A stretch of DNA of 14,452 nt from a virus (lineage: Duplodnaviria; Heunggongvirae; Uroviricota; Caudoviricetes). Location of the stretch: the IMG/VR virus record IMGVR_UViG_2724679538_000001; one strand, given 5' to 3'. A program made the position numbers and the translations under genes. The first letter of the stretch is position 1, and each line of letters opens with the position of its first letter. Of the stretch, positions 9,449 to 14,452 are shown piece after piece. The notes beneath the pieces were generated by a model. It saw only the letters and a program-made list of their open reading frames with translations. It had not been told where the DNA came from and did no database searches.

Positions 9449-13129
<3,681 letters not shown>

Positions 13130-13155
<26 letters not shown>

Positions 13156-13675
13156 TCAGCAACCCCGGTATCAGTTCATCCAGCGCGGCTGCTTTGTTCA
13201 TGGCTTTGATGATATCCCGTTTCAGGAAATCAACATGTCGGTTTTCCAGTTCCGGAAAACGCCGCTGTACCGAGAGAGGGATCCCGTCAAGAATACTGGC
13301 AATTTCACCTGCGATCCGTGACAGCACGAAAGTACAGAATGCGGTTTCCACCACTTCTGCGGAGTCTCTGGCATTCTTCAGCTCCTGGGCGTCAGCCTGC
13401 GCACGCGTAAGTCGATGGCGTTCGTACTCAATAGTCCCAGGCTGGAGATCTGCCTCGCTGGCAGCCCTGTAATCCTCAACCTCTTTACGGAGTTTTTCAT
13501 TTTCGATATCAGCTTCCCTCTGCGCATACCACTGAATTGCCATGGCGGTATCAAATACAGATTCAACGCCCTTACCACCTCCGGAGACGCAAGGGAGTCC
13601 CTGAGACTGCCAGCGTTCAATCGTTCGCGGATCCACGTTGAAAATTTCGGCAAGTTTCTTTTTATTAACCTTCAT
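13130..13675 (-). CDS. Nu1: Terminase small subunit Nu1 (181 aa); the N-terminal DNA-binding domain diverges from lambda while the C-terminal two-thirds are lambda-like
   Basis: ORF 13130..13675 (-), 181 aa. Residues from about 75 onward ([60 protein letters not shown]...) match lambda Nu1 as recalled. Residues 1 to about 70 ([41 protein letters not shown]...) differ at many positions from lambda (MEVNKKQLADIFGASIRTIQNWQEQGMPVLRGGGKGNEVLY...). Confidence 0.92.
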
Positions 13676-13699
13676 GAAACAGTCTCACAATAAATACAG

Positions 13700-13811
13700 G
13701 GTCCGACATGAAAGTGCCCGAAAATGACTTTTTTAGGCGTTTTCATGTCGGACCTTTACGGATTCGATATTAGAAAAAACAAATAGTTATATTCGAGAAG
13801 TACCGACATGA
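13700..13811 (-). repeat. Three copies of a CCGACATG(A) motif in cosB: a 14-bp perfect inverted-repeat pair (13700..13713 and 13741..13754) plus a third copy at 13803..13811. Candidate small-terminase binding (R) sites
   Basis: ggtccgacatgaaa at 13700..13713 and its exact reverse complement tttcatgtcggacc at 13741..13754, separated by 27 bp. ccgacatga recurs at 13803..13811. All lie between cosN and the Nu1 start, where lambda carries R3-I1-R2-R1. Confidence 0.5.
13777..13789 (-). promoter_or_regulatory. Possible IHF-like site (aaacaaatagtta, one mismatch to WATCAANNNNTTR) after an A-tract, between the first and second R-like repeats
   Basis: AT-rich spacer 13755..13800 with an A6 tract and a near-consensus IHF core. 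Its position is analogous to lambda I1. This is a weak motif match only. Confidence 0.25.
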
Positions 13812-13851
13812 TTTTCCCCGGAAAATTTTCATAAATAGCGAAAACCCGCGA

Positions 13852-13863
13852 GGTCGCCGCCCC
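13852..13863 (-). other. cosN cohesive-end sequence (GGGCGGCGACCT on the minus strand) in joined, uncut form
   Basis: Plus-strand aggtcgccgccc at 13852..13863 is the exact reverse complement of the lambda 12-nt cohesive end. The flanking 30 or so bp on the Nu1 side match the lambda left end, apart from a 1-bp difference. Confidence 0.9.
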
Positions 13864-13884
13864 GTAACCTGTCGGATCGCCGGA
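13864..13884 (-). other. cosQ-like region immediately on the right-end side of cosN
   Basis: The minus strand reads GGCGATCCGACAGGTTACG directly upstream of cosN, one substitution away from the lambda right-end sequence as recalled. The exact extent of cosQ is uncertain. Confidence 0.5.
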
Positions 13885-13898
13885 AAGGACCCACAAAA

Positions 13899-13915
13899 TG
13901 ATAATAATTATCATC
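13899..13915. repeat. Perfect 8-bp-arm palindrome atgataat-a-attatcat
   Basis: Read directly from the sequence; it sits in the AT-rich DNA between cosQ and the small plus-strand ORF. Function unknown; a protein-binding site is possible. Confidence 0.4.
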
Positions 13916-14061: not shown

Positions 14062-14295
14062 ATGTCAACGAAGAACAGAACCCGCAGAACAACAACCCGC
14101 AACATCCGCTTTCCTAACCAAATGATTGAACAAATTAACATCGCTCTTGTTCAAAAAGGGTCCGGGAATTTCTCAGCCTGGGTCATTGAAGCCTGCCGCC
14201 GGAGACTGTGCTCAGAAAAAAGAGTTTCTCCTGAAGCAAACAAAGAAAAGAGTGTCATTACTGAATTGCTCAGAAAACAGGTCAGACCAGATTGA
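14062..14295 (+). CDS. Hypothetical small basic protein (77 aa) with an Arc/Mnt-like ribbon-helix-helix signature
   Basis: ATG at 14062 with AGGG 7 nt upstream. It is the only substantial ORF in this AT-rich segment. The stretch NIRFPNQMIEQINIALVQKGSGNFSAWVIEACRRR parallels Arc (NLRWPREVLDLVRKVAEENGRSVNSEIYQRVMESF): a beta-strand with Arg/aromatic/Pro, helix A, a Gly turn, then helix B. The N-terminus is Arg/Thr-rich. Coding status is not proven. Confidence 0.4.
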   Translation: MSTKNRTRRTTTRNIRFPNQMIEQINIALVQKGSGNFSAWVIEACRRRLCSEKRVSPEANKEKSVITELLRKQVRPD

Positions 14296-14339
14296 AGCAA
14301 TTTAGATAATCGTGCAGACTACGCCCTGATGAATCCCCT

Positions 14340-14361
14340 AATGATTTTTATCAAAATCATT
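14340..14361. repeat. Imperfect palindrome aatgatttt-tatc-aaaatcatt downstream of the small ORF
   Basis: 9-bp arms with a 4-bp spacer, read directly from the sequence. It is AT-only, so unlikely to be an intrinsic terminator; an operator-like site is possible. Confidence 0.3.
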
Positions 14362-14452
14362 AAGTTAAGGTAGATACACATCTTGTCATATGATCAAATG
14401 GTTTCGCCAAAAATCAATAATCAGACAACAAAATGTGCGAACTCGATATTTG

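Follow-up and report, generated by a model that had tools for sequence, protein, structure and literature searches.

The question raised by this locus is what the short repeats between the cohesive-end site and the terminase genes are recognized by, and whether they make up a new set of sites. The DNA analysed, referred to as the window, is the whole stretch of 14,452 nucleotides, and an initial annotation had described the repeats at 13700-13811 as a new set resembling the terminase-binding sites of lambda cosB. We conclude, with a probability of about 0.93, that they belong to the cosB subsite of a lambda-like cos with the packaging specificity of phage 21. On sequence comparison the repeat set is already known, a phage 21 type cosB in a common natural lambda/21 mosaic.

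The window derives from a lambda-like phage or prophage with the head and tail genes on the minus strand, and lambda and its close relatives can be aligned over approximately 97% of the window, with about 96.5% identity. The landmarks around cos were as follows, with phage coordinates counted from window position 13862 (phage bp 1).

11230-13155, minus strand: large-terminase gene (lambda-type gpA)
13130-13675, minus strand: small-terminase gene (Nu1/gp1 homologue), start codon at phage bp 188
13851-13862, minus strand: cosN, 12-base cohesive-end sequence GGGCGGCGACCT
13882-13893, minus strand: cosQ region, homologous to the phage 21 'R4' box, aligning to M81255 positions 136-147

Positions 136-147 of M81255 are annotated 'R4 ... 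recognition for terminal cos cleavage', and the cosQ region of the window holds GGGTCCT on the minus strand (13886-13892), which we take to be the 7-bp cosQ known from lambda. The putative cosB lies directly to the right of cosN. Here ggtccgacatgaaa was found at 13700-13713 with its exact reverse complement at 13741-13754, forming a perfect 14-bp inverted repeat, and CCGACATGA was read directly at 13803-13811. A pattern search for the octamer CCGACATG returned 13703(+), 13744(-) and 13803(+), plus a further match at 13234-13241(-). Direct reading and pattern search therefore agreed with the coordinates first given for the three copies and the inverted repeat, which can be extended to arms of 25 nt with 84% complementarity. 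The features of the region are listed below.

13798-13813, minus strand: R3, the cosN-proximal predicted small-terminase site (phage bp 50-65); core CATGTCGG at 13803-13810 (bp 53-60)
13777-13789, plus strand: I1, predicted IHF bending site between R3 and R2, AAACAAATAGTTA (phage bp 74-86)
13741-13756, plus strand: R2, predicted small-terminase site running opposite to R3 and R1 (phage bp 107-122); core CATGTCGG on the plus strand at 13744-13751 (bp 112-119)
13711-13743, no strand assigned: spacer of 33 bp separating the R2 and R1 cores, quasi-palindromic and inverted compared to phage 21
13697-13713, minus strand: R1, predicted small-terminase site nearest the Nu1 start (phage bp 150-166); core CATGTCGG at 13703-13710 (bp 153-160)
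13234-13241, minus strand: fourth CCGACATG copy, within the Nu1 coding sequence and outside cosB

The order from cosN is R3, I1, R2 (inverted), R1 and the small-terminase start codon, and a fixed distance separates R3 from the nick site. The three clustered copies of CCGACATG lie on the plus, minus and plus strands of the window, which corresponds to direct, inverted and direct in phage orientation.

CCGACATG was matched four times in the window compared to 0.67 matches expected from shuffles, and the window-wide chance of three copies inside about 110 bp was approximately 3e-4. The clustering first inferred from the number of octamers is thus real and unlikely to have arisen by chance, although that count had missed the fourth copy. 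We judged the fourth copy to be a chance match, since the octamer is present in lambda (bp 625) even though the lambda terminase does not use the motif. An accessory role like that of the rR2 site of N15 was considered for it and rejected, as the copy sits in lambda-derived coding DNA, occurs in lambda and is absent from phage 21 at this place.

The near-consensus IHF core and the A-tract that had been reported between the cosN-proximal copy and the inverted copy were both present. I1 agrees with eight of the nine specified consensus positions, with one mismatch to WATCAANNNNTTR, and its 5' end is overlapped by a run of six A residues (13774-13779). IHF cores with one mismatch occur seven times in the window compared to 7.2 expected, a frequency at chance level when taken alone, and the consensus match was for this reason dropped as independent evidence. 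Weight is given to I1 due to its position, as phage bp 74-86 is the annotated I1 of phage 21.

A megablast search with 13560-13900 returned the phage 21 records M81255, X02501 and OL657228 at approximately 88% identity, a level that spans cosB and the first ~200 bp of the gene (cosN to Nu1 codon ~70). The phage 21 records carry curated protein-binding features for R3 (bp 50-65), I1 (bp 74-86), R2 (bp 107-122) and R1 (bp 150-166), of which R2 is annotated 'in opposite orientation to R3 and R1'. The R3 annotation is found in OL657228 (bp 50-65) and M81255, and that of the cosB I1 in OL657228, with the I1 of M81255 covering the same place. When aligned, the R3, I1, R2 and R1 features coincided exactly with the repeats and the IHF core of the window, in keeping with the lambda-like R3-I1-R2-R1 layout with an inverted R2 that had been proposed. 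The cores start at bp 53, 112 and 153 in the window and in phage 21 alike, compared to 53, 114 and 155 in lambda. Given annotated phage 21 sites at the aligned positions and identical core coordinates, the repeats of the window correspond to the phage 21 R set. The initial annotation had itself suggested a comparison with the R sites of phage 21, and its description of the set as new does not survive that comparison.

The window shares with phage 21 the CATGTCGG core, the coordinates of R3, R2 and R1, the position of I1, the G residues at bp 56 and 59, and the small-terminase recognition helix. It differs from phage 21 at R3 bp 54, which is A in the window (giving a perfect CATGTCGG) and G in phage 21, in the bases just 3' of the R1 core and in the orientation of the R2-R1 spacer. 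In addition, cosN bp 18, 24, 42 and 44 are of lambda type, as are the C-terminus of the small terminase and the large terminase, none of them being of 21 type. The phage 21 R sites themselves were reportedly defined experimentally by Sippy et al. in 2015 and by Becker and Murialdo in 1990.

Lambda and phage 21 have cosQ and cosN in common, yet either phage packages the other's DNA at an efficiency more than 1000-fold below that for its own (PMC4669245). The choice between the two specificities is decided by critical contacts and clashes that involve two base pairs of R3 (bp 56 and 59) and two residues of TerS (20 and 24); in one such clash, Glu24 of lambda TerS is opposed to the bp 56 G-C pair of R3-21 (PMC4669245). 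These specificity determinants for the phage 21 R sites were used here as given in that study (PMC4669245). In the window, bp 56 and bp 59 of R3 are both G, as in R3 of phage 21, and the small terminase has the same recognition helix as phage 21 gp1, Glu20 and Ser24 included. The centre of the helix reads ERWQS, compared to QNWQE in lambda, where the counterpart helix is IRTIQNWQEQG. The repeat likewise differs from the lambda R sequence, as had been stated, with CATGTCGG in place of CGTTTCC, and the marks of lambda specificity (a CGTTTCC core, T-A at bp 56, C-G at bp 59, Gln20 and Glu24) are not those of the window.

The small terminase as a whole matches the Pfam family Phage_Nu1 (302 bits), and its gene falls into the following parts.

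13469-13675, minus strand: small-terminase codons 1-69, winged helix-turn-helix domain of phage 21 type (residues 1-72 compared with gp1 and Nu1)
13460-13481, minus strand: zone within the small-terminase gene that holds the recombination junction (phage bp 382-403, codons 65-72), mixed at bp 382-399
13130-13468, minus strand: central and C-terminal part of the small terminase, lambda type, with 95-100% identity to lambda in each 40-bp window

Over residues 1-72, identity is 88% to phage 21 gp1 and 60% to lambda Nu1. Over residues 1-54 the protein has 49 of 54 positions identical to PDB 7LWR, the sequence of which is that of phage 21 gp1 residues 1-54. The differences lie at residues 7, 30, 32, 34 and 37 (K7R, V30A, G32K, G34S and V37I, with the residue of the window given first and that of phage 21 last).

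The mosaic was mapped by a walk along the sites that differ between lambda and phage 21, plus sliding identity. Phage bp 1-44 are exactly those of lambda, and the informative sites at bp 18, 24, 42 and 44, where phage 21 differs, are of lambda type; the left junction rests on these four sites only. From bp 46 to approximately bp 399 the informative sites are of 21 type and not of lambda type, and from bp 403 onward they are of lambda type. Sliding identity agreed with the site walk, being 21-like upstream and lambda-like downstream of the junction zone. The replacement of cosB relative to lambda that had been suspected is confirmed by these sites, and the junction at codons 65-72 fits the extent of about 70 residues given for the divergent N-terminal domain. 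A role in binding the large terminase (TerL) has been assigned to the C-terminal half of the small terminase (PMC9026076). By its mosaic structure the locus is a natural lambda/21 chimera, in which a 21-type cassette of cosB and DNA-binding domain is joined to a cosN, a small-terminase C-terminus and a gpA of lambda type. With a 21-type cassette in this lambda-type setting, 21-specific packaging by the lambda machinery would be expected.

To collect relatives, IMG/VR was searched with the N-terminal domain (72 residues), two domains of greater divergence and exact DNA patterns. The pooled sets of loci partly repeat the same contigs, and counts are therefore given as distinct sequences. A total of 43 distinct upstream regions belonging to small terminases with the identical recognition helix were compared. 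R2 was CATGTCGG in 42 of the 43, R1 was CATGTCGG in the same number, and R3 was C(A/G)TGTCGG in 42 of the 43, with CATGTCGG in 20 and CGTGTCGG in 22. Only 6 of 24 columns in the cores were variable, compared to 72 of 125 across the remainder of cosB (Fisher p = 0.004; 43 same-helix regions). Loss of the motif from relatives that kept the Nu1 N-terminal domain, which would have spoken against terminase sites, was not seen, as the R cores were retained across the 43 distinct same-helix relatives. Comparison with other helix types gave the following pairs of recognition helix and core.

21-type helix (window): CATGTCGG, three copies
RTIQNWQEQG (lambda): CGTTTCC, three copies
RTITAWQSQG: CAGATCC, three copies
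RTIDRWQTQG: CATGTC(A/G)(G/T), three copies

The direct-inverted-direct layout is common to all four helix types, and the core changes with the helix. This covariation of helix and core is the pattern expected of cognate pairs of protein and DNA. Homology to phage 21 cosB, the junction at codons 65-72 and the covariation together support the earlier proposal that the repeats are the cognate sites of the divergent Nu1 N-terminal domain.

The CAGATCC/RTITAWQSQG type of cosB was abundant in IMG/VR (L204-L279) and has the same R3-I1-R2-R1 layout; the domain sequence in PDB 7LXS is similar to the RTITAWQSQG type. The 200 bp upstream of the small-terminase start in two further IMG/VR loci (L083 and L087) belong to a third lineage with the same recognition helix as the window. 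These two loci carry a variant cohesive end, GGGCGGCAGCGG in place of GGGCGGCGACCT, and in L138 and L073 the variant cosN GGGCGGCAGCGG was combined with a cosB of the window type.

In 23 distinct sequences the cassette of the window was followed by a C-terminus of lambda type, and in seven by one of 21 type. Different prophages thus carry it with either C-terminal (TerL-binding) domain, as in L138 compared to L280, and the C-terminal variation is, as read from these sequences, natural modular exchange at about codon 70. Among isolated phages, IdasGreatGrand, which the megablast search with 13560-13900 also returned, has a cosB 99.1% identical to that of the window and a small terminase 100% identical to it; the same arrangement in an isolated phage supports a functional combination. 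At least 80% of the 397-bp segment of cosN, cosB and DNA-binding domain was present in 1195 of 5426 complete E. coli genomes, and the exact 181-residue small terminase was found on at least 1000 contigs.

We infer the binding, bending and packaging specificity of this allele from homology, coordinates, specificity determinants and conservation together with covariation. As in lambda and phage 21, IHF bound at I1 would impose a U-turn on the DNA, bringing R3 and R2 opposite one another. Two winged helix-turn-helix domains of the small terminase would then dock as a dimer across R3 and R2, with their recognition helices in the CATGTCGG major grooves and R1 as a further small-terminase site. The lambda-type C-terminal domain would recruit the lambda-type large terminase, which would nick cosN 12 bp apart and start packaging (PMC4669245, PMC9026076). 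On this scheme cosB and the first ~70 small-terminase codons would travel together as a cassette, and the phage should package 21-specific DNA with machinery that is otherwise that of lambda.

It is possible to accept the same kind of site and still suppose that the allele has a distinct sub-specificity, such that phages of the window type and phage 21 no longer package each other's DNA efficiently. With about 88% identity, the two alleles fall into separate lineages. Of the five substitutions in the DNA-binding domain, four are at residues 30-37, in or beside the wing, and the wing residue Lys35 of lambda has been proposed to contact the minor groove (PMC9026076). R3 bp 54, the R1 flank and the flipped spacer also differ from phage 21. 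However, the allele has the phage 21 recognition helix unchanged and retains Lys35. Its R cores match those of phage 21 save for R3 bp 54, where A and G are about equally frequent among distinct same-helix sequences (20 compared to 22), and every position published as discriminating (bp 56 and 59; residues 20 and 24) is of 21 type. We consider such a split in specificity unlikely. In a related and similarly improbable proposal, recognition would be tuned by the altered wing (residues 30-37), by R3 bp 54 and by the R1 flank, and the flipped spacer would record diversification of the cassette; if this were true, the spacer would point to diversification by recombination or template switching between inverted terminase sites.

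The spacer of the window matched that of phage 21 at 22 of 33 positions when aligned directly and at 29 of 33 as the reverse complement. Given flanks that are 88% identical, the probability of 11 mismatches under direct descent was approximately 9e-4, and the base pairs flanking the cores were swapped in keeping with an inversion of the spacer. Across approximately 190 related loci the orientation of the spacer tracked lineage completely, and a search of these loci for recurrent flipping, as in a switch, gave no sign of ongoing inversion. The spacer has the look of a single ancient inversion between the oppositely oriented R2 and R1 sites that became fixed, rather than of a switch. The polarity of the change was sought in outgroups (the PhiR5_1 type, the L128 type and lambda), but the scores of the two orientations were too close due to the quasi-palindromic nature of the spacer. 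The two arms of the R2-R1 palindrome share one type (GTGC) in the L083 lineage, a pattern suggestive of conversion of one arm to match the other.

The R2/R1 inverted repeat might also be read mainly as a nucleic-acid structure, either an RNA hairpin formed by the late-transcript leader ahead of Nu1, with a part in termination, stability or translation control, or a DNA cruciform. The transcript of 13680-13775(-) folds at -32.2 kcal/mol (z = -4.7) and the 25-nt arms fit such a structure. This stability, however, follows trivially from the presence of two inverted binding sites, and the arm mismatches outside the cores are uncompensated in either lineage. A structure would also leave unexplained both R3, the third copy, which lies 59 bp away at a fixed distance from cosN, and the change of the core together with the recognition helix in other phage types. 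We regard this reading as very unlikely. A search of Rfam gave no match at the R2/R1 palindrome. The hairpin as a terminator was rejected, with no terminator call and no T-run after the stem.

A functionless chance cluster, in favour of which there is only the further copy at 13234 that is itself a chance match, is scarcely credible given a window-wide chance of ~3e-4, homology to an annotated and studied site and conservation in 43 distinct relatives.

The cosB of phage 21 type is best placed beside other known systems. With lambda cosB, the window shares the architecture, the orientation pattern, a near-identical spacing, an IHF site lying between R3 and R2 and an identical cosN, as well as the proposed mechanism of an IHF U-turn and a winged helix-turn-helix dimer across R3 and R2 (PMC4669245, PMC9026076); the two differ in the core and in the helix, as described above. 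The complex cosB types of phi80, Gifsy-1 and Monarch carry three R sequences plus an IHF site, with each R set matched to its own TerS helix (PMC4669245). They resemble the window in these features, and their R cores and helices differ. The simple cosB of N15, unlike that of the window, has a single critical R3 only. A laboratory lambda-21 hybrid with a chimeric TerS combined cosB and the DNA-binding half from phage 21 with the TerL-binding half from lambda (PMC9026076). The lambda-21 hybrids of the Feiss laboratory have the same design as the window, in which the junction lies at codons 65-72. Unlike these laboratory hybrids, the chimera of the window is natural and widespread in E. coli prophages, and a sister allele of phage 21, not phage 21 itself, supplied the 21-type part.

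The discovery value of the locus is small, as the cosB and R sites of phage 21 have been described, annotated in GenBank and genetically dissected, and the allele is present in about a fifth of complete E. coli genomes. The comparison does offer a rule for annotation, by which 21-type packaging specificity, a property that standard pipelines do not annotate, is predicted from a 21-type helix accompanied by three CATGTCGG cores that begin at bp 53, 112 and 153. It also indicates that the swappable cassette of cosB and DNA-binding domain, combined with a TerL-binding domain of lambda or 21 type, is a laboratory finding that occurs in nature as well. Packaging specificity bears in turn on which helper phages mobilise which cos-bearing elements.

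A profile search of genome contigs with the alignment of the N-terminal domain recovered mostly lambda itself in unrelated genomes, with a single useful divergent relative (Providencia) and little diversity of 21 type. Lambda-type small terminases were found on contigs, many of them short, assigned to Kitasatospora, Bradyrhizobium, Paenibacillus, Limosilactobacillus, Shewanella and others (L095-L119). The identity of these sequences to the query was the same as that of lambda's own Nu1, and they most likely represent contamination of the assemblies with lambda DNA.

Beyond cos, the right-end region of the window holds a 77-codon open reading frame at 14062-14295 (+), in DNA which is presumably the lambda right end. 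An IS10-like end (CTGATGAATCCCC...) begins at approximately 14326 (region 14326-14452), and a strong Rfam match to RNA-OUT, the antisense RNA of IS10, was found at 14371-14440(-) (97 bits, E = 8e-21). The combination of the IS10-like end and the RNA-OUT match indicates an insertion sequence in the right-end region of the phage that runs off the window.
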